From the NCBI GenBank assembly GCA_964530825.1, contig CAZHCA010000008.1, positions 27,229 to 91,228 of the forward strand: a stretch of DNA of 64,000 nucleotides, in the 5' to 3' direction. The notes below the pieces were generated by a model, which searched no databases, was not told where the DNA came from, and saw only the letters and a program-made list of their open reading frames with translations. Below, piece after piece: positions 8,975 to 35,470 of the stretch. The position numbers were made by a program, and so were the translations under genes. This DNA comes from an uncultured Saprospiraceae bacterium. Lineage in GTDB: Bacteria; Bacteroidota; Bacteroidia; Chitinophagales; Saprospiraceae. The stretch's first letter is position 1. Each line of letters starts with the position of its first letter.

Positions 8975-10132
8975 TCATTCCTCAATCACGACAAAAGACC
9001 TAAAGTTATCCCGGGTGATTACCTCACCGATTGCCTGGTATTTATCCAGGAATGTCTTAGGCAGCTTCGGTTTCTTTTTTGGGTCCCATTTAAATTCGAA
9101 ACCATACAATTGTTGGCTTTTTTCCTCCACGTAATCCACTTCCTGCTGTTGGGTCGTACGCCAAAAGTACGGTTTGGCTAGCGTGAATTTGTAGCTGTTC
9201 TGTTTCATGCGCTCCGCTACCAGGAAGTTTTCCCAGAGGGCACCTTTATCCAGCCTGGCATCCATGCTTTTGAAATCACCGATGATGGTATTTCGGATAC
9301 CGTTATCGTAGAAATAAATTTTCCGGCCCTTTTTAATTTCATTGCGGACATTTCGGCTATAGCTGCGCAATCGAAAAATAACATAACCCTTTTCCAGGAC
9401 GTCAATATAGTTGATGACCGTCTGACGGTCGACACCTACCAATTGACTCAATTCATTGTAATTGACCTCATTTCCCACCTGAAGAGCAAGTGCCTGCACG
9501 AGTTCATCCAGTACCTGGGGTTTTCTGATATCGGCATATGCCAGAATATCGCGATACAAATAGCTGTTGACAAGGTTCTTAAGGATCTCCACCTCTTCTC
9601 CCTGGTTGTTGATCACATCCGGATAGAATCCGTACAGCAGTCTCGTTTCCAGTTGTTGTTGTGCCTTGAGGTAGCCTGTATGGTTTTCGTATTCTTCCCA
9701 GCTTATCGGATACAGTTCATATTCCCACTTTCTGCCGGTCAGTGGCTCATTCAATTCGTCAAAAAGCGTGAAAGAAGAAGAACCGCTTACCCACAACTGA
9801 ACATCCCTTAGTTGATCGACAATGATTTTCAAAGTCAGCCCAATTCCGGGAATACGCTGGCCTTCGTCAATGAAAACCACCTTCTTCTTACCGATTAATC
9901 GCTTAATCTCTTCTGTATTAGGGGTGTTAAGCTCATTCCTGACCAATGGATCATCACCATCGAAAAACTGATAATCTACTCCATTGAGTAGTTCCTTAAT
10001 CAGGGTGGTCTTACCCACTTGCCTCGGTCCTACAATAATAATGGCCTTTCCCCGGCCAATTTTGGCGGTTATCCTCGATGTAATGGTTCTGTCGATCACA
10101 TCATAAATGTGATGAAAAAGGGTTGTAATCAC
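8975..10132 (-). CDS. AAA+ ATPase with C-terminal DUF4143 (COG1373 family)
   Basis: Walker A GPRQVGKTTL, Walker B VVFIDEGQ, and the typical C-terminal YFYDNGIRN...WENFL region. Confidence 0.85.
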   Translation of the reverse strand: MITTLFHHIYDVIDRTITSRITAKIGRGKAIIIVGPRQVGKTTLIKELLNGVDYQFFDGDDPLVRNELNTPNTEEIKRLIGKKKVVFIDEGQRIPGIGLTLKIIVDQLRDVQLWVSGSSSFTLFDELNEPLTGRKWEYELYPISWEEYENHTGYLKAQQQLETRLLYGFYPDVINNQGEEVEILKNLVNSYLYRDILAYADIRKPQVLDELVQALALQVGNEVNYNELSQLVGVDRQTVINYIDVLEKGYVIFRLRSYSRNVRNEIKKGRKIYFYDNGIRNTIIGDFKSMDARLDKGALWENFLVAERMKQNSYKFTLAKPYFWRTTQQQEVDYVEEKSQQLYGFEFKWDPKKKPKLPKTFLDKYQAIGEVITRDNFRSFVVIEE

Positions 10133-10721: not shown

Positions 10722-10985
10722 ATGGATGAAGGTTTTTATTTCGTATACGTGTTGTATAGTGAGAAAGATGGTCGTTTTTATACAGGGTATACCTCTGACC
10801 TTAGTCAACGAATAGAGGCGCATCAGGCAGGAAAGGTCACATCAACTAAGTACAGGCTCCCTCTGGTACTGGTCTATTATGAAGCCTGTTTGCACCAACA
10901 GGATGCTACTCACAGAGAACAGTATCTGAAAACGACCTATGGAAAACGCTACTTGAGGAATCGACTTAAAAGATACTTGGAATGA
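10722..10985 (+). CDS. GIY-YIG nuclease family protein (small stand-alone type)
   Basis: FYFVYVLYSEKDGRFYTGYTSDLSQRIEAHQAGK... Confidence 0.85.
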   Translation: MDEGFYFVYVLYSEKDGRFYTGYTSDLSQRIEAHQAGKVTSTKYRLPLVLVYYEACLHQQDATHREQYLKTTYGKRYLRNRLKRYLE

Positions 10986-11168: not shown

Positions 11169-12080
11169 CTACACCCACACCAACTTCCCCCCACTCAGCT
11201 CTTCCTCCCCATCAAAGCGATACGCCGTGAGGACGCCGCCTTTGGCGACGCTGTAGTCGAGACAACAGGCATTGGCTGTGAGCAGCTGGGGACGGCCCTG
11301 CAGCCAGTAATAACCAAAGAAGGCCGACCGCTCGGTGGGCCTATAATGACTGGCGTCTGCCCCGGCGAAAGAGAGATGATCAAGCCCCAGATCGGGCACC
11401 ACACTCATCGCCTGGAACGACTGCTCGGACGGATTCACCCACCACTTGGTGCGGATCTCCCGGCGCTCGTGACCATCTTTGTCGTGGAAGCTGTAGCCCT
11501 CGGGTAGGGGGACTTCTTTCCCCTTACAGGCCACCTCCACCGATTTGTACAGTCGGCTGCCTTTTTCCGCTGCTGCCGGCAGCAGCTCGGCGGGGATGGT
11601 GGCATTGGGCAGTACTTCCCGCAGATGGTTGATGACCTCCACGTCCCAGCAGGCGTGTACCGCCCGCAGATGGGGCGTCTCCAGGTAGAGGGGCAACGTC
11701 TTGAACCATTCGATGGCCGAGGCATAGTCGCCCTGACGGCTACCGTACTGCTCCAGGGTAGCCGCGTGCTGATGGATGTTCTTCCTGGTGTGCGGACGCA
11801 GATACCCGCCTCCTTCCCAGGGTGTATTAAAACAGATGGCATTGAATTCGTGGTTGCCGCACAAAGCTACCGCACTCCCGGCATCGACCATGGCCCGCAC
11901 CAGCTCCACCACCCGCAGACTATCCGGACCCCGATCAATATAATCACCCACAAAGACTACCTGCCGCTCCGGATGCCGGTAGGCACCGGCTCGCCGTGCG
12001 TAGCCCAGCTTGCGCAGCAGGGCTTCCAGGCGGCCGGCGTGGCCGTGGATGTCGCCGATGAGGTCGAGGAGGGGTGTCAT
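11169..12080 (-). CDS. Metallophosphoesterase (PrpE/ApaH-like Ser/Thr phosphatase or diadenosine tetraphosphatase family)
   Basis: Motifs GDIHGH, GDYIDRGPDS, GNHE. Confidence 0.8.
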   Translation of the reverse strand: MTPLLDLIGDIHGHAGRLEALLRKLGYARRAGAYRHPERQVVFVGDYIDRGPDSLRVVELVRAMVDAGSAVALCGNHEFNAICFNTPWEGGGYLRPHTRKNIHQHAATLEQYGSRQGDYASAIEWFKTLPLYLETPHLRAVHACWDVEVINHLREVLPNATIPAELLPAAAEKGSRLYKSVEVACKGKEVPLPEGYSFHDKDGHERREIRTKWWVNPSEQSFQAMSVVPDLGLDHLSFAGADASHYRPTERSAFFGYYWLQGRPQLLTANACCLDYSVAKGGVLTAYRFDGEEELSGGKLVWV

Positions 12081-12112: not shown

Positions 12113-13999
12113 TTAGTCTTCAACTTCTTCTACAAAGTGGTGTAACCCCCAGATAGACTCACATATAGTCTGATATAGTTGTTGACGATTAACGACATCC
12201 TGCTTTTTAAAGTTCTTATGCGGCTCAAAGGGTAATCCCAGCCTTTCTTTCATCTTGATAAAGTTGGGATTATTCCGATAGGTTAGTTCACAGAGCGTTT
12301 GAGCCAACAAGTTTTCCTTGATGTAGTGTTCCAGCTTTTCATCATAAGGCTTGGCACTAAACGATTGATTTGTTCCTCTCGGAAGCAAGATCAAAGCACC
12401 TAAACGGTTTCGATATTCTTGAAAGTCGGTTTCTTGCTCGAATTCATCCCTGTGCTCCAAGAATTTATCGGCCCAGATATGCTCCACCTCAAAGGGCTTG
12501 CCACCGGGGTTAGAGAAGTATTTCTCAAAACTGGAATTCAATCCCGTTTCACGCTCAACATAACCCGTCATACGGGCCAGCAAGAATTTTACAAACCGCC
12601 TATTTTGCCCATGCAGCCTAAAGCGTTGTATCCCACTCCAGTCTTCCTCCATTTCGGCCAGTTTTTTATAGAGAATATCCTTTAAGGTCCGCAAATCTTT
12701 TCGCCTAATTTCTTTAACCAGGGTATACATGGTGTAGCGAATTGAACTGGAGGCGAACTTGCGGAAGTTGACGGAGCGCCTTACCACAAACGTTTCGATG
12801 AACCGCGCGACCGCATTCATTTTCTGAAAAATGACCTGATCATGGTCTTCTTTTCGGAGAGGAGACACAAGTAGTGGGTAACTTAATGAGTTGGCGATAC
12901 CCCAGCGCTTGATATAATACACATGCTCTAAGCCTCCGATCAGCTCTTTTTCTGCCCTGAGAATGGATAGGTATGCTTTTAGAAAGAACTTGAAGTCCTC
13001 GTCAATAAATCTTTGAAAATCCCCACTTTTTTCGGAATCCAGAGGGATTTTAAGCAGGTTTTCCCGAAACCAATTGTGGAAGCGGGTACCTATTTTCTCG
13101 AAGTCCTCATTCTTAGAGCCAGCTCGTCCAGGACGAATAGTCTCCGCATACTGTGCTCTCAGCCAGGCCTGAATAAAGCGTTGATCCTCATCTTTATCGT
13201 AAGCATGAAGTTTTTGCATGGAGCGTTTCCAAAGTTCATTGGCCTTTTGTCTCTTTTGATCTTCGCCAAATCTGGATAGGATGAATCCTTTCAGCATTTC
13301 GGTAGGAGTCAGGTTTAACCCCCGATCATTCATCGTTTCAAAAATGGTATAGGCATTTTCATCAGAATAAGCCATAATCTCTACCAATATCACATTGTAC
13401 TTCAACCAATCTATAAAGTATGGTAATGTTTCGCTTTTGATTTCTTCTGGAAAAGCGTTTTCGATGTCTACATAACGGGCTGCCATGTTTTTAGTAGACT
13501 CATCATCATATTCGGTTACTTCATAGTCCCCTTCTTTGAATAAAGCTTCCAGACAGGGCGTTCGCTCTTCTACTTGAATATTAAAGGACTTCTTGCCAAA
13601 TTTCTCAGAGAAGATGTAGGACTCTAACTTCTCTTCGTGCCCCAACTTCTTTTGCAAGTTGTTCAAGTAAATGAGTAGAAGTGTAAGTGATGTAAGACGC
13701 TGCTGACCATCAATAATACTCCGCTGACCATTCTTAACACTAACGACAAATGGCCCTAAATAGTAAGAATTATAGTTCTCAATCTCCGGCCTTTCGTGCT
13801 CCTCTTTATACTCATTTAAGAATGAAGAGGTGAGGTCTGAGACCAACTGCTCAATATGTCGTTCTTCCCATTTATACTCACGCTGAAAGAAATCGACCGT
13901 ATATTTTTTATCATCCAAAACCTCAGCAATAGATCGGTCGTGGGCCTCAATTTTGTTGGTTAGTTTGCTCATACAATGACTTAGCTGAATTTTTTCCAT
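12113..13999 (-). CDS. DUF262 (ParB-like NTPase) + DUF1524 (His-Me finger) protein, GmrSD/BrxU-like type IV restriction nuclease
   Basis: FFQREYKWEERHIEQLVSDL and IIDGQQRLTSLTLLL (the DGQQR motif). C-terminal FEVEHIWADKF. Start set at the ATG at 13999; the ORF is open to 14122 but would overlap the upstream gene. About 40% GC. Confidence 0.8.
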   Translation of the reverse strand: MEKIQLSHCMSKLTNKIEAHDRSIAEVLDDKKYTVDFFQREYKWEERHIEQLVSDLTSSFLNEYKEEHERPEIENYNSYYLGPFVVSVKNGQRSIIDGQQRLTSLTLLLIYLNNLQKKLGHEEKLESYIFSEKFGKKSFNIQVEERTPCLEALFKEGDYEVTEYDDESTKNMAARYVDIENAFPEEIKSETLPYFIDWLKYNVILVEIMAYSDENAYTIFETMNDRGLNLTPTEMLKGFILSRFGEDQKRQKANELWKRSMQKLHAYDKDEDQRFIQAWLRAQYAETIRPGRAGSKNEDFEKIGTRFHNWFRENLLKIPLDSEKSGDFQRFIDEDFKFFLKAYLSILRAEKELIGGLEHVYYIKRWGIANSLSYPLLVSPLRKEDHDQVIFQKMNAVARFIETFVVRRSVNFRKFASSSIRYTMYTLVKEIRRKDLRTLKDILYKKLAEMEEDWSGIQRFRLHGQNRRFVKFLLARMTGYVERETGLNSSFEKYFSNPGGKPFEVEHIWADKFLEHRDEFEQETDFQEYRNRLGALILLPRGTNQSFSAKPYDEKLEHYIKENLLAQTLCELTYRNNPNFIKMKERLGLPFEPHKNFKKQDVVNRQQLYQTICESIWGLHHFVEEVED

Positions 14000-14081
14000 T
14001 AAAAACGGTTCTATACCGGCAATGAGGAGGTTTGGAGGCCCATACCACTTCGTGAGCGGTATAATAACCTGAGATTCCTCC

Positions 14082-16775
14082 TCACCACCCCTTCCCCAAC
14101 AACTCCCGTACATCGACCTCATTCAATACCTCCTGGTACGATTCAAAATCGGTAGCATCAATGCGGTCGTAGCGAATCTCAAAGGCACTGCGGGTCTCAA
14201 CCTGCCGAATGCGCTCCTGTGCTTTCTCTTTCTCTCCCAGGGCGACGTCCACCCAGACGTCTTGCAAGATGTCCGGTATTTGCCCGAAGATGCTGAAGAT
14301 ATTTTCCAACCGATCACTCAGCAATTCATGGACCCGGTCTTCTACCGTACCCCGGTAGCGCATGTTGTAGACCTTGACAGTATCTAACCGCTGCCCGATG
14401 CGTTGAATGCGGCCTTTGCGCTGCTCCAGGCGGGTCGGATTCCACGGTAAGTCTAAATTGATGAGGGTGCCGAGGCGCTGTAGGTTGAGGCCCTCACTGG
14501 CACTGTCGGTGCCAAAGAGGATACGGATGTCATCGGATTGTACCGCTCGCTTGATCGTTTCTTTTTCTACCCGCTGATACCGGCCCTTTAGCCAAACACC
14601 TGATTTACCGGAGCCCGCGTATACCCCAATCTTCTTATCGGGATGTGCCCGGGCTACCCGCTCGGCAAAGTAGTGGACTGTATCGTAATATTGGCTGAAG
14701 ATGATGCACCCCAGATCAGCCCAGCCGCTCTGAAAAAGAAGTTCGTTGAGTCGTTCCAGCTTGGGATCGGCATCGGTGTATTCGTCCAATTGCCGGATCA
14801 GGCGTTGCAGGATCTCTTCCTGCTCCGGACCGATCCGGGCGGCAATACCGGTAGGGGCTTCTTCTACCACATCGTCTTCTTCCTCTTCCTCCATCCATTC
14901 TGGATCGTGGCCCAGCATTTTGATCGCCGTTTTGCGGCCGGCTTCCATACTACTGCCAATGCGGCGCAACAGCAGGGTTTTGATAAATCCAGCCCCCTTC
15001 ATGACTTCTCCCAGAGACGTACTAAACTCTTCCGCCGTGTGGTAGGCATCTTCCAGATACCCCTTCAAAGGAATGGCATCTTTGGGCGCTTCGCCGTACA
15101 GAACTACTTCGACCTTTTTCAGGAAAGGCTCTCCGGTTTCTTCATTGATGGTTTCTTCCAGAAATTTGCGGGTGCGGCGGACAATATGACGCACATAAGG
15201 ATTGTACTTCTCGAACAGCCCATCTTCCCGCTCAATCGACCGTTTATAGCCGGGATTGAGCCGATCGACTGTTTCGGGCTTCAGTACAAAATCGCGTGGA
15301 GTCATCTCCAGGGCCCGCCGAATGCGTCCAAATAAGCGGTCGTTTTCATAAGCCGGTGGAAACGGGTGGCGCAGCCATTCCCACAGGCGGTGTTTGTCTT
15401 GAAAGGTGCGTGCGGTGCCATCGACCAGCTTGAAGCTTGTTTCTTTGGATTGGGTACGCCACCAGGAAAAGTCATTCCCCAGTACATGGGGAGCTCCTGC
15501 ACCTAAGACACACAGCAGGTCGTAGGCCTCGATCGGATATAATTGTACCGGTGTAGCCGTTCCCAACATCATGCTTTTGGTGCGGGGAGATAGCTGCAGC
15601 AGAAAGGCCATCATATTATTGGGCTCAGCGGGCTCCTCCTGTCCGTTTTCCTTCAGGTTCCTTCGTCTTGATCGGTGAGCCTCATCCACGATGACACATT
15701 CGTATTCTTTTTCCAGTAAACGCTGCACGACGTCCGAACCCCGAATTACTAATCCCTGACTAATGATACCAAAGCGGCGTGGACATTTGAGAATAGCTTT
15801 CTTTGGATTGTTATTTTCGTGTACGTGGCCGGTTTCATCGATCCAGGTGTTCTTATCCCAAACTGCCGAAGGTAGTCCCAGTAGCTTCAGGAGTTCATCT
15901 TGCCACTGATAGACTAGCGTTTTAGGCGCAATGACCAGGACCGGCTTATCGCTTTGCAAGGCCATGAGCATAGCCGCCATAGCTAATTGGACCGTTTTGC
16001 CCAGGCCCACCTGATCGGCTAAGACAAAGCGGGCCCCTCTCCCACAGCGATGTTCTTCATAGGCTAGCTTGACAAAAAATTTCTGGTGACCCCACAAACC
16101 AAAATGCTCCCGGTAAATGGGATTTTCTACTACCGCCGCTTCGGGTTCCGGCTTTTCCCGCCATTTATCCAGGGGGACTACTTTGCGCCCACTCAAACGC
16201 TTGATATCCGTGATAATCGCCTCAGAGAGCGAACAGGCACGGGCGTCATTCCACAGCGTATCAAACTCTTCCTGCACCCAGGTGACCGCTTCTGGCGAAG
16301 GGTCTTCCCAGATCAGCTCGTAGTTCAACTGCCAGCCCGATTTGCTCTCGTTGGCACTGCCTAAAAAAGCCGTTTGACTGCCATCTTCGAATGTTAACAC
16401 CCCGGCCTTGCCGTGGACCAGCCCAAAGGCTTGATCGGGCAGCACGCGGATTTCCAGCTTTTCAGAAACGAGTAATTGATATAAACGAGATAGGCGCTCC
16501 TGCAGACCGTCGTTATAGCGTTGGTCGATTTCTTTTTTCCACTCCTGCGTCAATGCCAGGTGGGCAGCCTTGGCTGTTTGCACATCGAGCGGATCGAGGG
16601 ACGAATTGGCAACCATGCGTACCTTTCCCGGCATCTGGGCGATAGCCTCTCCCGCAATCTCCAGCATGGAGGAACTGAAGTAACCCGCGATACGGTCGTA
16701 TCGTACAGCCTTTTCCAACCGGTCCCGAAAAAAATGCTTGCCTAATGATTGCCGACGGGAGGAGTAGCGTTGCAT
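14082..16775 (-). CDS. PLD-nuclease-domain / SNF2-family helicase fusion
   Basis: N-terminal single HKD motif (LVHGKAGVLTF...FLGSANESKSGW). Helicase motifs DQVGLGKT, VIVDEAHRSR, MLGTATPVQ and LNLQ...DLPWNPTRLEQRKGRIQRIGQ. Confidence 0.9.
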   Translation of the reverse strand: MQRYSSRRQSLGKHFFRDRLEKAVRYDRIAGYFSSSMLEIAGEAIAQMPGKVRMVANSSLDPLDVQTAKAAHLALTQEWKKEIDQRYNDGLQERLSRLYQLLVSEKLEIRVLPDQAFGLVHGKAGVLTFEDGSQTAFLGSANESKSGWQLNYELIWEDPSPEAVTWVQEEFDTLWNDARACSLSEAIITDIKRLSGRKVVPLDKWREKPEPEAAVVENPIYREHFGLWGHQKFFVKLAYEEHRCGRGARFVLADQVGLGKTVQLAMAAMLMALQSDKPVLVIAPKTLVYQWQDELLKLLGLPSAVWDKNTWIDETGHVHENNNPKKAILKCPRRFGIISQGLVIRGSDVVQRLLEKEYECVIVDEAHRSRRRNLKENGQEEPAEPNNMMAFLLQLSPRTKSMMLGTATPVQLYPIEAYDLLCVLGAGAPHVLGNDFSWWRTQSKETSFKLVDGTARTFQDKHRLWEWLRHPFPPAYENDRLFGRIRRALEMTPRDFVLKPETVDRLNPGYKRSIEREDGLFEKYNPYVRHIVRRTRKFLEETINEETGEPFLKKVEVVLYGEAPKDAIPLKGYLEDAYHTAEEFSTSLGEVMKGAGFIKTLLLRRIGSSMEAGRKTAIKMLGHDPEWMEEEEEDDVVEEAPTGIAARIGPEQEEILQRLIRQLDEYTDADPKLERLNELLFQSGWADLGCIIFSQYYDTVHYFAERVARAHPDKKIGVYAGSGKSGVWLKGRYQRVEKETIKRAVQSDDIRILFGTDSASEGLNLQRLGTLINLDLPWNPTRLEQRKGRIQRIGQRLDTVKVYNMRYRGTVEDRVHELLSDRLENIFSIFGQIPDILQDVWVDVALGEKEKAQERIRQVETRSAFEIRYDRIDATDFESYQEVLNEVDVRELLGKGW

Positions 16776-16787
16776 GGGGATTAGGGT

Positions 16788-17282
16788 TTATTCTTCCACT
16801 CGAGGGCTTTGCTCCAATATTTTATACGGACTGACTACTGGCAGCAATACACTGCGAAATAAGGTCCCCTGAAGGCGTTCTAAGATAATTCCGCGGGAAG
16901 TAGAATACGCAATACCAATCATTGTTGCAGCCAAGTGCTGGTCTATCATGGGATTTTCTTCCTTATCGTACTGTACGAAATCAGAAAAGTTATCCATGTG
17001 AAAATGAAATTCGATCCCGTATTCGGCTTCTAATCCAATCTCTTCCTGTGTATCTTTTTCTAGTGCAACCAACTTAAAAAAAAGTCTGATACGGGTTAAA
17101 CCAGCTTCAAGGTTGTGCGCAATCTCTCGCTCAACCCCCATATTGAAATTAGCCGGGGCATCTACATCCAATACGGGCTTTTCTAACAATTCTGGAGCTG
17201 TTTCCAAACTGCCCTGAAATACATTGATACTGAATAAATGGATCTTATTGGGATCGATAGTCGGCCTCTTGCGCTTACTCAT
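16788..17282 (-). CDS. SecB-like chaperone candidate (third gene of a TAC-type module)
   Basis: 164 aa, SecB-sized. The by-eye strand/helix pattern parallels E. coli SecB: IHLFSINVF~FQIQRIYTK, TRIRLFFKLVA~YEVVLRVTVTA, LEAEYGIEFHF~LCEVQQGGIFSI, LAATMIGIAYSTSRGIILERL...LLPVVSP~[21 protein letters not shown]...NLAPVNF. ATGA overlap with the upstream HTH gene. Confidence 0.45.
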   Translation of the reverse strand: MSKRKRPTIDPNKIHLFSINVFQGSLETAPELLEKPVLDVDAPANFNMGVEREIAHNLEAGLTRIRLFFKLVALEKDTQEEIGLEAEYGIEFHFHMDNFSDFVQYDKEENPMIDQHLAATMIGIAYSTSRGIILERLQGTLFRSVLLPVVSPYKILEQSPRVEE

Positions 17283-17701
17283 GCGACGCTGATTTTAAGC
17301 TGAGAAGAGCGCTTCCCCTTATCTGAGGCAACTTCGCCCGTTGAATATTTAAGGTCTTTATGGCTTAGCTTATTCTGGACAGCGTGGTACCGCATGGTCG
17401 CAAAATGAACCTTGCTATAGGTACGACGTGCCTTCTGTGGTGTCATAATAATATCTTCCTCCAGTATAGCTTCCATTTTGGCAATACTGCGCAATGTGAG
17501 GTTGTGCGAACCACTGAGCCATTTACTAATTTCAGCACTAGTTTTTCCCAGCTTTTTGGCCAGGTCACTCTGTGTCCATCCTTTTTCCTTCAACAAAGCA
17601 AAAACTTGCTGAGAAATATCCAGGTTTTTATCCACAAAGCGTTCTACATCTGCCGGGCCTGGCTCGGCGAAAAACTGCTCAATGCTTTCGTACTTTTTCA
17701 T
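17279..17701 (-). CDS. XRE-family HTH protein (HigA-like antitoxin candidate) with a ~55-aa C-terminal tail
   Basis: HTH LKEKGWTQSDLAKKLGKTSAEISKWLSGSHNLTLRSIAKMEAIL. Tail ...RRTYSKVHFATMRYHAVQNKL.... ATGA overlaps at both ends. Confidence 0.75.
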   Translation of the reverse strand: MKKYESIEQFFAEPGPADVERFVDKNLDISQQVFALLKEKGWTQSDLAKKLGKTSAEISKWLSGSHNLTLRSIAKMEAILEEDIIMTPQKARRTYSKVHFATMRYHAVQNKLSHKDLKYSTGEVASDKGKRSSQLKISVA

Positions 17702-18201
17702 AGATAGATTGGTAATTCTGGATCGTAAACCAATAAATCAGTTTCCGGATCCAATGAAATGTCTTTATCGTATTGTGCTTGGCTAATAGCCTTGGTTAGT
17801 TTGTTGGCTAGACGGAAATGACTCGAAACATTAGGACAATCTTGTGCAGAATTGGCTGTTTTTTCTGCTCCATCAAATAAAATAACGGCCGATCGACTCA
17901 TCCACATACAATACAATCGAAGAGAACAATCCATGTTCAGGTACCTGGCCGGGGGTGGAAAAGCTTTAGCCTCTCCATCACCGGCACCTTCTACACGAAA
18001 ATATCGGCGATCCGCTCCAATTTCATTTCCGAGCTTCTGCAGCCATTTTCTGATTACAAATAATTCTTCTCTGTATTCCTCCTGACTATGTTTTTGTATG
18101 AAGTTTAAAAACATAGAAACGGGTTCGCCATCAAACTGGACCGAATAATACGTGATCCGCTTGAATTGAATTGCTTTCGTTATGTAGACAAAATTACTCA
18201 C
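17698..18201 (-). CDS. Putative toxin (RelE/HigB/Gp49-like core) upstream of the XRE gene
   Basis: GTG start. ...RYFRVEG...AFPPP...LRLYCMWMSRSAVILFDGAEKT resembles the remembered Gp49/HigB-like 'LRLYCxRxxxxxxILxxGGxK' core. Toxin-first order as in higBA. Confidence 0.45.
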   Translation of the reverse strand: MSNFVYITKAIQFKRITYYSVQFDGEPVSMFLNFIQKHSQEEYREELFVIRKWLQKLGNEIGADRRYFRVEGAGDGEAKAFPPPARYLNMDCSLRLYCMWMSRSAVILFDGAEKTANSAQDCPNVSSHFRLANKLTKAISQAQYDKDISLDPETDLLVYDPELPIYL

Positions 18202-18236
18202 TTATAAGTTCATTTCAAAGCTTTTTAACTTAAAAG

Positions 18237-21212
18237 TTAACCCACCGCATCGTTCTCCACGTACCCGCGCAGCAACTTCGCGGCTTCCACATCCTTGCTC
18301 CAGTGGGGGATGCTCTCCGTTTTCTTGATCATATAGCCCAGGATGGCCAGAATGAGCGACCGGCTGTTCCAGTAGTCGGGCCACTCGTGGTAGAGCCAGT
18401 TGCGGCCCTCTACCGGGTCTTCGGTGCGGTGTACTTCGTGGATGGCGAAGAGGATCTGACGGGTGAGGCTGCCGCCAAAATCCTCCCCGCTCAGGTCTTT
18501 GTTTTTGTACTCGATGGGGGTGATCAGCCGGGTGTGGTTGGCTTTTACCTTCAGCAGGTGGCGGTACTCTCGCAGGCCGTAGCCCCGGGCCATTTCCGTG
18601 TAGACGCCGCTGCGGTACTCGCCGCCCTGCTCTACTTCCAGCCCCTTGAGGTAGAAGCGCTCAAGGGGACTGAGCTTGCGCCATTCCGCTTCCGCAAAAC
18701 CGTTGGGCACCAGGGCGTCCATGGCGACGCGCACGGCGGAGTCGATGATCTTCACGATCTCGCTTTCGTCGCCGCTCTGCCGCTCTTTGCTGAGCTCGTA
18801 CTCGACATCGATCTCGCCCAGACGCTTGTACTTGGTGAGCTCGCGTAGGGCCGCTGCGTAGGCCGCCAGCTGATAGTCGGCATCGCCGAAGTTGGGGTCG
18901 TCTTTATCGTCGATCTGCTGCATGAAGGCGATCTGCTCCTTCACGCCGTACTCCACGTCCATTTGTACATCCGAGAGGAAGCCGATCTCCTCGGAGTCTT
19001 GCTTGCGCAGCACCATGATCACGGTGCCCTGCACGTAGTTGCCTTTTTTGATGCCCCCGGCATCGGTCTCGGTCTGTATGGTCCAGGCGGCGGTGACGCG
19101 CAGGCCCGAGGCCCAGAGGATGAGCGCCAGGTCGGCCCAGACCGCCGAGTCCTGATGGGTGAACATCACCACCTGCGCCCCGGCATCGGGCATGTGCCGG
19201 GTGAGGTTGCGGTACACCTCCACCATGGAGCGATTGAAGGATTGGCCCTTGCCTTTGACGGCCAGGGCGGACTTGCTGTTGGTGTGCCATTCCGGGAAGA
19301 GTTGTTCGAGGTGTTTTTGATGCCACGCTAGAAAAAAGTCTCCTAATTCATGATAATTAATGGCGTCGGCGTAGGGTGGATCAGTTATCCAGAAAGAACA
19401 TTCAAAATTAACACTTCTTGCATCTAATGTTCTTAATTTAAAGTTTGCATCAAATTTATTATCAGAAGGAACATTAAATAGGAAATTTTCCTCCATTGCT
19501 TTAAAGCCTTTGGCAGGAGGATTGAAAATTGTATTTAGGGCTTGATTCGAAAAAGTATCTCCAGTAGAACCTATACCGCCTGATCTTGACATTGTAGCCC
19601 GCCACCTGATTAATCTAGAATTTAAATTCGCCAAGTTTCCAAGTGAAAGAAGAGAGGCTATTTTTCCATTTGTCTTACTTTTTTCAAGTCTCTCAGAAAT
19701 TGATCCTAGGTAAAATAGTTGCCTAGGATTAAACAAATGATGCCAGTAGGTCCAGCCGCGCTCGCGTATGGGCTGTTCGGTATTGTATCCTCTGGGAATT
19801 TTAGTCGAAGGGATGTAGCCTTTCTCCTGCCATTCGGCAAAGCGTTCCTGCAGCAGCGCCAACACCTGCGCTTCCCGGGCCAGGTCTTCGGAATTAGGCG
19901 CGATATAGTGGCGTTGGGTTTTCTTTTTGATGGCTTTGCGGTCCAGCTTGTCTTGAAAATCCGGCCAGGCCTCGGCTTCCGCTTGTGTCCAGGTGATCTC
20001 TGGATTGTTGGCGTCCTCGTACCAGGTTTCCAGGTAGCGAATGCAGTAGAGGCGCTCCTGAAAGGTATCGTCGGGCCGGGGCACGAGGTCCTCGTTTTCC
20101 CACATGCGCAAGCCATAGCGGGTTTCGCCCTCCACCCGCCGGTCGCCCCGGATGGTGGAGATGTTGTGCTCGGTGTCCGTTTCCGGACAGACCAGGCGGC
20201 CGTTTTGCACCGTACCCGTTTTAGCGGCAGCGAAGGTGGCCGCATCGGCCCCTTCGATGATGTCAATATGGTAGCGCTGATTAGCGTGGTCGGGACGCAG
20301 CACGGCACAGACTTTATATTTTTCCGAGATCACCCAGCTGGGCGCCAGGGGCACCCAATAGCCGGTGGCCGGACTTTTGGCCTCCACGCAGTACAGGTAA
20401 GCATCGGCCCGCCAGCCAGCTTCATTGTGCTCGATGCCCCAGGCGGTGATTTGCTGATCCACGGCCTCGAATACTTCTCGTTGGGCTTCCTCAATCTCGG
20501 CTTTCACCTCCGGGCCGCCGCCCACAATATTGATCGAGGCCCAGGTAAGCAGGGCCGCTACCGGGTTGAGGTCACTGCCGTAGGCCTGACAGCCCAGGCG
20601 AGCCGCCTCAAAGGGAATGGAGCCGCCCCCACAGAAGGCGTCGCCTACCCGCGGAGTATGGCCAAATTGTTGCTGGCCCATCTGTTCGACCCATTCGGTC
20701 AGGCTGTTTGCCGTGGTGCCGCAGTGGGCATTGATCACCTCCCAGGATGCCGGCGAAGGCCCTTCGATCTGCTCGGGACGGTCGCAGAGGCGCAGCTTTT
20801 CGTCGTACGACAGGCGCTCGAAAGCCAGTTCCTGGACCTCCGCCTTCTGCTCGCGCGACAGCTCATTTTGCCAGGCCCAGCTTCCTTTGGCGTTTTCCGT
20901 AAGGTATTGAGCACGCTCTCCATCGGTCAATTGTGCCGCCAGGTCCTTGGCGGAAAGATTCTTACTGCGGCGGCGGCGCAGGCCCTCTTCGTCCATGGTC
21001 ATCAGGCGCAAAAAGACCTCCTGATCTTTGTCGGGATCATCGGTAGCCGGCAGCAGGAGGCCGATAAGGGTCGCCCGCACCAGCACCAGCGGCTTGCGCC
21101 CCCACCACTTGCCCAGGCCGGTCAGGGTCTGACCAGAACCGGCTTTACGCTCCTTATAGCTTTCCTTGGAGACCTTGGAGACCGGAAACTGTTGTTCAAT
21201 AAAAGCGGGCAT
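18237..21212 (-). CDS. DUF1156-domain DNA methyltransferase (COG1743-type N6A/N4C MTase)
   Basis: N-terminus FIEQQFPVSKVSKESYKERKAGSGQTLTGLGKWWGRKPL is the DUF1156 hallmark. SAM motif I DAFCGGGSIPFEAARLG and catalytic motif IV DPPYADAINY. Confidence 0.9.
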   Translation of the reverse strand: MPAFIEQQFPVSKVSKESYKERKAGSGQTLTGLGKWWGRKPLVLVRATLIGLLLPATDDPDKDQEVFLRLMTMDEEGLRRRRSKNLSAKDLAAQLTDGERAQYLTENAKGSWAWQNELSREQKAEVQELAFERLSYDEKLRLCDRPEQIEGPSPASWEVINAHCGTTANSLTEWVEQMGQQQFGHTPRVGDAFCGGGSIPFEAARLGCQAYGSDLNPVAALLTWASINIVGGGPEVKAEIEEAQREVFEAVDQQITAWGIEHNEAGWRADAYLYCVEAKSPATGYWVPLAPSWVISEKYKVCAVLRPDHANQRYHIDIIEGADAATFAAAKTGTVQNGRLVCPETDTEHNISTIRGDRRVEGETRYGLRMWENEDLVPRPDDTFQERLYCIRYLETWYEDANNPEITWTQAEAEAWPDFQDKLDRKAIKKKTQRHYIAPNSEDLAREAQVLALLQERFAEWQEKGYIPSTKIPRGYNTEQPIRERGWTYWHHLFNPRQLFYLGSISERLEKSKTNGKIASLLSLGNLANLNSRLIRWRATMSRSGGIGSTGDTFSNQALNTIFNPPAKGFKAMEENFLFNVPSDNKFDANFKLRTLDARSVNFECSFWITDPPYADAINYHELGDFFLAWHQKHLEQLFPEWHTNSKSALAVKGKGQSFNRSMVEVYRNLTRHMPDAGAQVVMFTHQDSAVWADLALILWASGLRVTAAWTIQTETDAGGIKKGNYVQGTVIMVLRKQDSEEIGFLSDVQMDVEYGVKEQIAFMQQIDDKDDPNFGDADYQLAAYAAALRELTKYKRLGEIDVEYELSKERQSGDESEIVKIIDSAVRVAMDALVPNGFAEAEWRKLSPLERFYLKGLEVEQGGEYRSGVYTEMARGYGLREYRHLLKVKANHTRLITPIEYKNKDLSGEDFGGSLTRQILFAIHEVHRTEDPVEGRNWLYHEWPDYWNSRSLILAILGYMIKKTESIPHWSKDVEAAKLLRGYVENDAVG

Positions 21213-33351: not shown

Positions 33352-35394
33352 TTAGCGATAAAAGTCAATCACCCAACGTTGGGTATTCCCGTAATAATCC
33401 GGCATAGCGAAAGATAAGCGCATACTGTTGTTGTCCAGGCGCTCGATGGTGCCGTTGTTGTCGTAGTTGCCCGAGCGCAAGGTAATGGCATTGCCGCTCA
33501 CAAAGTACTGATAGGTTTGCCGAGTGCCGAAGTTATCGGTGTAATACAAGTAGCCATTGTTGTTGAACTGCCAAGTCATATTGGCCGAAAACATCGTCTG
33601 CTCTCCCCCCAGTTGCGACATGGATACGCCGTTCATAGAAAAGTCGCGCACCCGCCAGGTGCCGGCAATTTTTGGGGTATTACTCGGAGCAGTGGGGGAA
33701 GGTTGTTCATAAACATTTGCCGAAGAAGCCGGCGGATCGGGGAAGGTGGCATCCATATTAGCGATCACGGCAACAACGCCCAGACCTACCGCTGCCACCA
33801 ATGCAATGATCAAAAAGGCTCGGATACCGAAAGAACTCCGCCGTTTTTTCTTCTTGGCGCTGGTGGTGGGTTGAGGATCCCGGGCGATCTTTGGTTTCTT
33901 CGTTTTGGGGAGGTTGGGCATCTTTTCCATCTTGGCCTCCATATCCGGTGGCAGGGGCGGGGGCGAACCCATCTGGGAAAAGTCGACGTAGTTGGGGGTC
34001 GATTTATGCTTGAGGCGCATCCGGCACTCCTTTATGAGCTCGTCCATCTTTGGGTTGTGATCGATCTTGCGCGCCTCATTGAAATATTCAAGTGCAAGCC
34101 GGTAATTGCCCGAGTCCATTGCTTTTACACCTTCATTATAATATTTGAGGAAGGTAATGCCATTGCTGCAAAAATTGATTTTTTCCTGCACGTAGTCGGG
34201 CTTGGGCGCGAAAGGCTCCATGTAGTACTCCAGGCTCTCGCGGTACTTATTACGCGCCTCCAGTAATTTGCCGCCATTGAAAAGGCGGTCGGCCTCGCCG
34301 ATGAACTCTAAGTATGTTTTCTTGATACTTTCCCGCTGCTCGGCCTCCTGGGCCATTCTGAGTAACTCTTGGCGGCGGCCTGCTGCCTGCTGCTGTATTT
34401 CCGTCAGCCGCTGTTTAGCCTCTTCGACATATTTTCCGGTCATGATGTACTTCTGCAGGTAGTTCTCATAGGCCATGGCGTTGTTTTTGACCTTGGCGCT
34501 TTCCCACATATCATCCTCCTGCAGCTCCAGAATCCGGCGGTTGGCAATTTCGGCGAATTGTCCTTCGGGGTAATAGTCGAGGTAGTTTTCGTACGCATTG
34601 AGGGTATCTATCTTGGAGATGTTTTCCCAAAATTCCCTCTCAGAAAGTTTGAGGTGAAAAACAAACTCACCGCCCTCGTCGGCCGAATTTTGTATCCTGC
34701 CTTCCACTGGGGTCTGGCGGGCTTTACCGTAGAGGTAATCTTTCACGTATTGGATCAGGGAGGTCGTATTGACCGATTTGTTGACGTTGCGTTTAAGGTA
34801 GGTCAGGATGCCGGCCGCGAACGGGCTGTTTTCACCCGGCTGTCCGTCGGCCACCGTCTCAGTGCGCCCCGAGGCGATAATCCGGCGGGAGCGGAAGCGC
34901 TCGTCTACGATGGTGCTGCGCTTTTTCACTACCAGTGTGCCTGAGAAGCAGGAGTCGACGACGACCAGGGTGTGGTGGGTGTCGATGGCATTCACCTTCT
35001 TGATGATATTGGAGTTGGAAATGAACCGATCCTCGACGTCGCGGCGGGCATCAACGGGCACCCAGTATCCTTCATCGAATTCTTCGTCGTAGTGGCCGTG
35101 TCCGGAGTAGTAGATGATCAGGTTGTCATGGGGTGTGATTTTGCGCTTCAGCTCCCGCAGCTTTTCGTAAATTTTGCCTTCCGTGGCATCTTCGTCGAGC
35201 AACAGGATCACCTCATCTTTTTCAAACTGGTACTGGCGCGTAAGCACCTCGGCCAAGTCTTTGATATCTTTGACGGCGTTGTGCAACGGGTCCCAGTGCT
35301 GGTAGTGATCGACGCCGATCGCCAGTAGGTAGTTCTTTCCTTTGGGTGCGGAAGTGGTGTCTTGCGGATTCGGCAATTGCACGCCTCTTTCCAT
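33352..35394 (-). CDS. Caspase-family (peptidase C14) protein with helical-repeat region, one TM helix and a C-terminal lipocalin-like domain
   Basis: His/Cys dyad IIYYSGHGH and LVVVDSCFSG. TM FLIIALVAAVGLGVVAVIA. C-terminus IAGTWRVRDFSMNG.... Start set at the ATG at 35394; the ORF is open to 35463. Confidence 0.8.
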   Translation of the reverse strand: MERGVQLPNPQDTTSAPKGKNYLLAIGVDHYQHWDPLHNAVKDIKDLAEVLTRQYQFEKDEVILLLDEDATEGKIYEKLRELKRKITPHDNLIIYYSGHGHYDEEFDEGYWVPVDARRDVEDRFISNSNIIKKVNAIDTHHTLVVVDSCFSGTLVVKKRSTIVDERFRSRRIIASGRTETVADGQPGENSPFAAGILTYLKRNVNKSVNTTSLIQYVKDYLYGKARQTPVEGRIQNSADEGGEFVFHLKLSEREFWENISKIDTLNAYENYLDYYPEGQFAEIANRRILELQEDDMWESAKVKNNAMAYENYLQKYIMTGKYVEEAKQRLTEIQQQAAGRRQELLRMAQEAEQRESIKKTYLEFIGEADRLFNGGKLLEARNKYRESLEYYMEPFAPKPDYVQEKINFCSNGITFLKYYNEGVKAMDSGNYRLALEYFNEARKIDHNPKMDELIKECRMRLKHKSTPNYVDFSQMGSPPPLPPDMEAKMEKMPNLPKTKKPKIARDPQPTTSAKKKKRRSSFGIRAFLIIALVAAVGLGVVAVIANMDATFPDPPASSANVYEQPSPTAPSNTPKIAGTWRVRDFSMNGVSMSQLGGEQTMFSANMTWQFNNNGYLYYTDNFGTRQTYQYFVSGNAITLRSGNYDNNGTIERLDNNSMRLSFAMPDYYGNTQRWVIDFYR

Positions 35395-35470
35395 GAGGTT
35401 GGTTTTTGTAGCCTTCCTCAAGGTAAGCATTTTTGTACAGCGGGTAAACCCCGCCCGGGCCAAGATTCCA

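Follow-up and report, generated by a model that had tools for sequence, protein, structure and literature searches.

The 64,000-nt stretch of DNA analysed here (the window, to which all coordinates refer; contig CAZHCA010000008.1 of an uncultured Saprospiraceae bacterium) carries a cassette of three small genes, g1, g2 and g3, between the methyltransferase and helicase genes of an operon related to Type-2 bacteriophage exclusion (BREX) systems. In the reading that we favour, with a probability of roughly 0.65, this cassette is an autonomous module of the toxin–antitoxin–chaperone (TAC) kind, corresponds to the three-gene form of the phage defence candidate PDC-M64, and was inserted into the operon with its own operators and promoter. 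The evidence lies in the SecB fold of the g3 model, the domain layout of g2, a triad whose gene order, antitoxin tail, C-terminal dipeptide and operators are conserved in a family of loci, and the insertion of the segment into an operon found elsewhere without it. That the cassette works like a TAC is reasonably supported by predicted fold and by architecture.

Layout of the triad and predicted folds of its proteins

The three genes lie on the minus strand, oriented like the surrounding operon. The putative toxin gene g1 (17698–18201) starts with GTG and codes for 167 aa, g2 (17279–17701, 140 aa) codes for a putative antitoxin that is also a putative autorepressor, and g3 (16788–17282, 164 aa) codes for the SecB-fold protein, a putative dedicated chaperone. 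Stop and start codons of successive genes share a 4-nt ATGA overlap, at 17698–17701 for g1/g2 and at 17279–17282 for g2/g3. The coupling of the three genes, the sizes of g1 and g3, the GTG start and the overlaps are as described in an earlier note on this DNA, and the order toxin, antitoxin, chaperone is, as that note had pointed out, the order of the mycobacterial TAC. Apart from the HTH_3 domain of g2, no curated Pfam, NCBIfam or PHROGs family matches g1, g2 or g3. The contiguous cassette matches all three component hidden Markov models (HMMs) of the PADLOC candidate PDC-M64, each over nearly the full length of the protein: PDC-M64A (PDLC04752) for g1 (E 5.3e-51), PDC-M64B (PDLC04757) for g2 (E 4.2e-40) and PDC-M64C (PDLC04763) for g3 (E 7.9e-40).

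The AlphaFold2 model of g3, based on an alignment of 24 sequences (pLDDT 84, pTM 0.78), shows four long antiparallel strands, then a long helix (residues 115–137) and a crossover segment that leads to a short helix at the C-terminus. In a Foldseek comparison with the PDB, the 19 best matches were all SecB (E 1.6e-5 to 5e-4, TM up to 0.62/0.74). The top match was 5mtw, the M. tuberculosis TAC chaperone Rv1957 with the chaperone addiction domain (ChAD) peptide of HigA1 (E 1.6e-5), and E. coli SecB (1qyn) was matched with TM of 0.62/0.73. SecB-like proteins of unknown function (2o2a and 2hng) followed at E of about 1e-3, and the remaining matches were above 0.02. A SecB fold for g3 is supported by this model and, to that extent, the SecB-like character claimed in the earlier note stood, but its by-eye match of the LLPVVSP segment to NLAPVNF of E. 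coli SecB was not confirmed and profile methods gave no significant result. Homology of g3 to SecB at the sequence level was rejected: Pfam, profile search of PDB sequences (no matches or chance matches, no SecB), hhalign and comparison of HMM scores with shuffled sequences were all negative. Relatives of g3 itself are numerous: a HMMER search of 1.84 billion cluster representatives (50% identity) found 2289 with E ≤ 1e-3, of which 699 had E ≤ 1e-10.

The g2 protein consists of an N-terminal segment (residues 1–27), an XRE helix-turn-helix (HTH) domain (about 28–85; Pfam HTH_3 at 35–81, E 3e-10) and a C-terminal tail of 59 aa, in good agreement with the XRE HTH and tail of about 55 aa expected from the letters. 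We counted conservation of the tail and C-terminus over 28 family members. After the HTH, a T-P-x2-A element and a basic patch are common to the family, followed at residues 94–110 by the motif K-[YF]-x4-[YF]-[VI]-x-[LF]-x-V-x-A-x2-N. Tyrosine or phenylalanine occupies position 95 in 75% of members, position 100 in 82% and position 119, the third aromatic, in 50%. Positions 101, 103 and 105 are hydrophobic in 86–100%, in a strand-like alternation, then come A107, N110 and, after 119, a variable end. In its motifs, this tail is comparable to the ChAD of M. tuberculosis HigA1, a C-terminal extension of ~45 aa with aromatic and basic SecB-binding motifs (PMC5105189). Its aromatic positions also compare with those in the ChAD of E. 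coli HigA, whose conserved aromatics enter chaperone pockets and which supplies additional strands to the sheet of SecB (bioRxiv 10.1101/2024.02.24.581848).

The window g2 ends with KISVA, that is with a C-terminal Val-Ala. Among the 28 members the last two residues are VA in 9, AS in 7, AA in 5, AM in 3 and AI, AV and IA in one each. Thus 25/28 end with [VAI]A or A[SM] (26/28 when the single Ala-Val is counted), alanine is found within the last two positions in 27/28, and every one of the 28 has A, V or I as its penultimate residue. The terminal Val-Ala of M. tuberculosis HigA1 is a ClpXP degron and the terminal Ala-Ala of CmdA has the same role; a C-terminal degron is not universal in TACs, and E. 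coli HigA does not need ClpXP. Most g2/g3 junctions read GCATGA or TCATGA. A mere by-product of the ATGA overlap was rejected as sole cause of the C-terminal alanine, because loci without the overlap and loci with other alanine codons retain it.

The g1 model (AlphaFold2, pLDDT 92.5) has a core, apparently RelE/HigB-like, with the order beta-beta-alpha-alpha-beta-beta-beta-alpha. Its 11 best Foldseek matches in the PDB were all toxins of the RelE/ParE superfamily, among them HigB, YoeB and V. cholerae HigB2, at weak E-values of 0.06–1, and BrnT and ParE appeared further down the list. Values of TM were 0.3–0.5 when normalised to the query and 0.4–0.69 when normalised to the target; S. pneumoniae HigB (6af4) was matched with TM of 0.50/0.69 and a probability of 0.98. 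In the family alignment, invariant residues include R69, E71, R95, Y97, K114, T115 and N124, and H128 is nearly so. The R, Y and K of the pattern R-x-Y ... G-x-x-K-T are among the invariant positions. The RelE/HigB/Gp49-like core proposed in the earlier note is upheld in part: the stretch LRLYCMWMSRSAVILFDGAEK is present in g1 and the best structural matches, weak as they are, are toxins, but sequence profiles were negative. Homology to RelE/HigB/Gp49 at the sequence level was rejected, since neither the family collections Pfam, NCBIfam and PHROGs nor hhalign and a profile search of PDB sequences revealed it, and the Foldseek viral structure library returned nothing for g1. By sequence, then, neither g3 nor g1 can be placed in the SecB and HigB families.

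Operators, insertion and genomic neighbours

Two operator-like palindromes were found 5′ to g1, both on the minus strand. O1 (TTAACTTTTAAGTTAA, 18225–18240) includes the stop codon of the methyltransferase gene (18237–18239) and is located 39 nt 5′ of the g1 start. It corresponds exactly to the consensus TTAACTT-NN-AAGTTAA and is the only match in the window at ≤2 mismatches. O2 (TGAACTTATAAGTGAG, 18197–18212), a degenerate second copy with 3 mismatches, overlaps the g1 GTG start. Between them lies a predicted −7 promoter box (AAGCTTTG, 18216–18223, minus strand), which agrees in 7/8 positions with TAnnTTTG, the Bacteroidota −7 box consensus. A sigma-70 promoter scan gave nothing, this model not being appropriate for Bacteroidota.

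This arrangement recurs in the family. The equivalent of O1 is found at −38 to −41 in many loci and that of O2 at −11 in most (TTAACTTnTAAGTGAA, in which GTG is the start codon), with T-rich TTTG elements at the matching place in other loci. Within 100 nt 5′ of g1, the palindrome with ≤3 mismatches was present in 26/30 loci, against a background of 0.011 per 100 nt in the same loci. The paired palindromes are kept across L001, L004, L009–L036, L040 and L042 although the proteins are only 30–60% identical, and they could be used to find more members of the family. The XRE protein probably binds at TTAACTT-NN-AAGTTAA and, judged from position, the putative promoter would belong to the cassette itself. 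Paired operators over promoter and start codon would give the classical layout of an autorepressed toxin–antitoxin (TA) operon.

In the surrounding operon, DUF3780 and DUF499 genes precede the gene for a 991-aa DUF1156 N6-methyltransferase, which is the 5′ neighbour of the cassette (stop at 18237, gap 35 nt). The 3′ neighbour codes for an 897-aa PLD(HKD)-SNF2 helicase (start 16775, gap 12 nt), and a gene for a GmrSD-type enzyme comes next. This composition of DUF499 ATPase, standalone DUF3780, DUF1156 methyltransferase and HKD(PLD)-helicase, in which all four match by Pfam and PADLOC, is that of the Type-2 BREX-related, DUF499-centred system defined in PMC12839542. For comparison, 30 relatives of the helicase (L045–L074) were retrieved with their operons from metagenomes. 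In 14 of the 30, the order DUF499, DUF3780, methyltransferase, helicase is kept and the distance from methyltransferase stop to helicase start is −1 to +20 nt; the triad is present in none of the 30. The methyltransferase C-terminus of the window (...LLRGYVENDAVG) and its helicase N-terminus (MQRYSSRR...) align with full-length relatives. Since both proteins are complete at these termini and their genes abut in the 14 operons, the 1461 bp from methyltransferase stop to helicase start (16776–18236, minus strand) are a clean insertion. The later insertion proposed in the earlier note is supported by these operons, and base composition agrees. The GC content is 42.3% for the cassette, 57.0% for the methyltransferase gene (~61% in the adjacent 1 kb), 53.0% for the helicase gene and 51.8% for the window; the 42% first given for the cassette was right and the 64% for the methyltransferase too high.

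Other cargo occupies the methyltransferase–helicase junction in related operons: L045 has an antitoxin-like gene with a ParE toxin gene (PF05016, 2e-18), L067 has DUF433 with an IS1595 transposase, L048 a PIN protein, L049 an AAA_15/21 ATPase with GmrSD and L063 a UvrD helicase. The junction looks like an insertion hot spot, and it is useful for annotation that TA genes and other defence cargo repeatedly land at this place in Type-2 BREX-related operons.

We then considered the neighbours of the triad elsewhere. Among 29 distinct loci found with g3 in genome collections, the DUF1156 methyltransferase was present on the window's own contig only. The 91 nearest neighbours in these 29 loci include 6–7 AAA_14/DUF4143 ATPases (PADLOC PDC-S01), the commonest family, a handful of type I, type IIG and DISARM-type methyltransferase or specificity genes, RmrA, mad5 and helicases, while many are ordinary metabolic genes. 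Triads lie just after HsdM (L040), HsdM-HsdS (L077) or a MmeI-like type IIG enzyme (L075), one adjoins an AAA_15/21 ATPase and large helicases (L042), and three (L001, L004 and L076) show no defence gene nearby. The simplest reading of this distribution is that the triad is a mobile, self-regulated module with a tendency to land or be retained in defence loci. Embedding of mobile defence cassettes has been described as a general pattern by Payne et al. (bioRxiv 10.1101/2024.01.29.577857).

Several features of the region itself were observed besides the cassette. An AAA_14 and DUF4143 ATPase gene (PDC-S01) is also found in the window, at 8975–10132 on the minus strand, 6.7 kb from the cassette. 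The frequent proximity of this family to the triad may reflect either a functional link or a preference of both for defence islands. Inside the methyltransferase gene, GC content drops sharply to 38% at 19250–19749, the rest of the gene being at ~60%; this dip would fit a swapped target-recognition insert, as PMC12839542 describes for such methyltransferases. The GmrSD-type gene (DUF262/DUF1524; 12113–14122, minus strand), which as listed overlaps the helicase stop by 41 nt, has a GC content of 42%, close to that of the cassette and unlike that of the helicase gene (53%); an independent acquisition as a further accessory effector is possible. Among the relatives, GmrSD comes after the helicase in L054 and before it in L049. 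Genes for a small GIY-YIG protein (87 aa, 10722–10985) and a calcineurin-like phosphoesterase (62% GC, 11169–12080) separate the AAA_14 ATPase gene of the window from its GmrSD gene. Over the 8–25 kb stretch, GC content swings gene by gene from 40% to 62%, which suggests a mosaic island. The window also codes for a caspase-domain (Peptidase_C14) and TPR protein (33352–35463), a 667-aa leucine-rich-repeat protein (905–2908) and a DUF6089-OmpA protein, and contains no tRNA gene.

The triad family and alternative readings

When one genome per species was scanned, 31 loci were recovered, and more were reached from individual proteins. The triad recurs in about 35 independent loci, where its gene order and, for the most part, its overlaps are kept; this recurrence of the same families argues that the three-gene arrangement is not due to chance. 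The 31 loci are almost all in metagenome-assembled genomes (MAGs) of Bacteroidota: Saprospiraceae, Chitinophagales, Cyclobacteriaceae, Bacteroidales and Flavobacteriales. Among the 28 loci listed (27 besides the window's own contig), the 4-nt g1/g2 overlap is present in 17 and the ATGA g2/g3 junction in 20. Three look-ups seeded with g1, looking for two-gene relatives devoid of the chaperone, led again to triads only. A distant triad (L078, 27% identity for g3) is carried by the Hymenobacter swuensis plasmid pHsw1 (NZ_CP007144.1, 228751–230251), a mobilizable plasmid of 299 kb, directly after a DEAD/DEAH helicase gene; RefSeq annotates its three proteins as hypothetical, HTH regulator and hypothetical.

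Decay of the triad is selective. In three loci g1 is decayed while g2 and g3 are intact: it is 5′-truncated in L009, frameshifted in L011 and has lost its core by internal deletion in L036. Intact g1 with a broken g2 or g3 was never seen among the loci examined. Such an asymmetry is expected if g1 is the harmful partner. Three further loci (L037, L038 and L039) keep only remnants of the cassette.

PDC-M64, to which the triad corresponds, is one of 145 phage defence candidates of the 'guilt-by-embedding' study of Payne et al., chosen because they are embedded within BREX, DISARM (defence island system associated with restriction–modification) or type I restriction–modification (RM) systems. According to the supplement, it comprises two-gene and three-gene cassettes with the first family in common; the two-gene form, FAM_00144>>FAM_00055, is without the third gene (bioRxiv 10.1101/2024.01.29.577857).

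A number of results weigh against an autonomous TAC-like module. For g3, the Pfam SecB model (PF02556) matches no member, either at E ≤ 1 among 148 diverse sequences or at E ≤ 10 among 24 members. The hhalign comparison of the g3 family with E. coli SecB or with a 14-sequence SecB alignment gave probabilities of <1%; that alignment is shallow (sequences 83–100% identical plus that of H. influenzae), and deep profile–profile homology may have escaped it. Similarly, the g3 family HMM scored SecB no better than shuffled sequences (151/2000). For g1, the weakness of the Foldseek E-values (0.06–1) counts in the same direction, as does the fact that the M. tuberculosis HigB1 structure is not among the matches listed. 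The Pfam models ParE_toxin, HigB-like and Gp49 match none of 16 g1 family members, and the g1 family profile found four chance-level matches among PDB sequences (E ≥ 1.1), no toxin among them. Also, hhalign of the g1 family against M. tuberculosis HigB1 and E. coli RelE was not significant, though the alignment with RelE falls on the expected R-x-Y strand. The C-terminal Ala/Ser signal of g2 partly coincides with the overlapping GCATGA/TCATGA junction, and the asymmetry of toxin decay comes from three loci only, all in MAGs, in which sequencing errors are possible. Finally, no homologue of the triad was found in IMG/VR with the family motifs or in GenBank phages; by contrast, the characterised E. 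coli TACs are prophage-borne.

These points leave room for other readings, one of which concerns g1 and g3 themselves. The triad could be a tripartite defence module with another division of labour, in which g3 is an effector or structural mimic, or g1 a sensor or an inactive RelE-like domain while the toxic activity has another source. This would agree with the absence of detectable sequence homology of g1 and g3 to characterised proteins, with the weak structural matches of g1 and with the existence of SecB-like folds of unknown function (2o2a and 2hng). Yet the closest structures to g3 are by a wide margin bona fide SecB (E 1e-5 to 1e-4 versus ≥1e-3), and the architecture agrees with that of HigBAC in every point, down to the tail of the antitoxin and its Val-Ala end; we regard such a division as improbable. 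Still less probable is a transcriptional control module, made of an XRE regulator with two accessory proteins, in the manner of C-proteins or BrxR-type regulators. It takes its support from g2, an HTH protein with conserved operators for which PADLOC also gives weak matches, one to a control protein of RM systems (E 0.003) and one to mad1, and from the recurrent position beside methyltransferase genes. The operators, however, are located 5′ of the triad itself and not of the neighbouring genes, and the triad is kept as a unit in many loci with no RM system nearby. Moreover, SecB and RelE-like folds are not features of known control modules, and the degron-like C-terminus of g2 and selective decay of g1 fit the logic of a TA system.

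The remaining question is whether the cassette is integrated with the BREX-related system around it, either as a second line of abortive infection that would be set off by inhibition of the primary system, in the way that PrrC backs up EcoprrI, or as a regulatory switch, in which loss of the antitoxin during infection would raise expression of helicase-nuclease and GmrSD from the antitoxin-controlled promoter. Taken together, these two versions seem unlikely. The cassette has the orientation of the operon and gaps of just 35 and 12 nt, with no terminator-like site on either side (in the region, terminator-like sites occur at chance level); helicase and GmrSD genes may for these reasons be partly read from the cassette promoter. 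Such read-through would be the one concrete route to functional coupling, although in our estimation a rather doubtful one. The same low expectation holds for the wider idea that the insertion places HKD-helicase and GmrSD, downstream of the promoter, under a labile, chaperone-guarded antitoxin; were it true, a phage titrating the chaperone or blocking expression would both free an RNase toxin and derepress DNA-targeting effectors. Integration is further favoured by the triads directly after methyltransferase or RM genes of several types, by the TA-type cargo (ParE, PIN, DUF433) recurring at the methyltransferase–helicase junction, and by embedded backup effectors being a described theme (PMC12839542; bioRxiv 10.1101/2024.01.29.577857). 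It could also be that selection for two-layer circuits, and not neutral insertion, accounts for the repeated presence of triads and other TA pairs right behind methyltransferase genes in RM-like systems that are unrelated to each other. On the other side, the triad has no specific partner, as seen from the DUF1156 methyltransferase being restricted to the window's own contig; none of the 30 related operons carries it, many triads lie amid unrelated metabolic genes, the cassette brings its own operators, and co-location is equally explained if defence loci act as insertion sinks. The earlier note had spoken of a TAC module 'wired into' an RM-like operon and had suggested, among other roles, that it could act as a sensor that couples infection to the nuclease/helicase arm. 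Functional wiring is unsupported and is the least supported part of its reading: the cassette has its own operators and promoter region, it occurs alone or beside unrelated systems, and no other related operon carries it.

Proposed mechanism and comparison with known systems

For the autonomous TAC-like module that we favour, the HigBAC systems of M. tuberculosis and E. coli serve as the model from which toxicity, neutralisation, chaperone dependence, trigger and defence function are inferred. In this scheme g1 would be a translation-dependent RNase of RelE/HigB fold, neutralised by g2 via the N-terminal segment of the latter. As an HTH dimer, g2 would also repress the cassette promoter at the two TTAACTT-NN-AAGTTAA sites. 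Its aromatic, basic and strand-like tail may render g2 aggregation-prone and protease-sensitive unless held by a g3 tetramer, and the C-terminal Val-Ala may mark it for degradation of the ClpXP type. If g3 were titrated, for example by a phage structural protein, or if expression were shut off, g2 would be lost, and the freed g1 would arrest translation in the infected cell, leading to abortive infection or addiction.

TACs have been known since 2011, and MqsRAC, CmdTAC and HigBAC, which senses lambda gpV and for which a major tail protein was the trigger, are established phage defences (PMC9519451, PMC11618068, bioRxiv 10.1101/2024.02.24.581848). Abortive infection is a known defensive role of TACs (bioRxiv 10.1101/2024.02.24.581848; PMC9519451). 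In PMC3581621 a TAC was defined by a third protein found with Pfam PF02556 or by PSI-BLAST from Rv1957, and the TAC census of 2013 does not mention Bacteroidetes. Housekeeping SecB is essentially absent from Bacteroidota (PMC4361572), which account for nine SecB sequences among 3813. The novelty claimed in the earlier note for a TAC embedded in an RM-like operon is weakened by this literature, in which both TACs (bioRxiv 10.1101/2024.02.24.581848; PMC11618068) and embedding (bioRxiv 10.1101/2024.01.29.577857; PMC12839542) are published, and by the correspondence of the triad to PDC-M64. Within the literature searched, three points appear new: the TAC architecture of PDC-M64, whose third protein has a SecB fold; the position of its putative toxin and chaperone outside the recognised sequence families; and its large family in Bacteroidota, in which the operators are conserved and the end of the antitoxin is degron-like.

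If confirmed, PDC-M64, so far only a number in a list, would gain a mechanism as a chaperone-addicted TA system, its chaperone and toxin being too far diverged to be recognised by sequence. TACs would also be extended to a phylum with essentially no housekeeping SecB, with about 2,300 g3 clusters at 50% identity. Given that the chaperones of known TACs recognise phage structural proteins directly, many new phage sensors could come from this family in Bacteroidota of the environment and the gut.

Among characterised systems, HigB1-HigA1-SecB(TA) of M. tuberculosis (Rv1955–1957) and E. coli HigBAC are tricistronic as is the triad, with a toxin, an XRE-HTH antitoxin and a SecB-fold protein. M. 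tuberculosis HigA1 (149 aa) and g2 (140 aa) share an N-terminal segment, an HTH, an aromatic/basic extension and a Val-Ala end. The triad differs from both systems in its larger putative toxin (167 aa versus about 92–125 aa), in the lack of detectable similarity of g3 and g1 to PF02556 or to HigB/Gp49/RelE models, and in its confinement to Bacteroidota. CmdTAC and MqsRAC follow the same logic of a TA 'warhead' with a SecB-like chaperone and a ChAD-bearing antitoxin, and CmdA ends with an Ala-Ala recognised by ClpX, the end also found in 5/28 antitoxins of the g2 family. Their toxins, an ADP-ribosyltransferase and MqsR, differ from g1, and their chaperones are recognisable SecB homologues by sequence.

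PDC-M64 is matched end to end by the three proteins, and the candidate was defined from embedded cassettes such as this one; its entry proposes no mechanism, and SecB or TAC is named nowhere in the paper or its supplements (bioRxiv 10.1101/2024.01.29.577857). Embedded effectors, such as PrrC in EcoprrI, BrxU in BREX and the HEPN, PIN and Schlafen RNases of BREX-related loci, resemble the cassette as small modules set between core genes in the same orientation. No TAC has been reported among those of BREX-related systems, and SecB does not occur in PMC12839542. PrrC is physically held inactive by the host RM complex, whereas no such partner specificity is seen for the triad.

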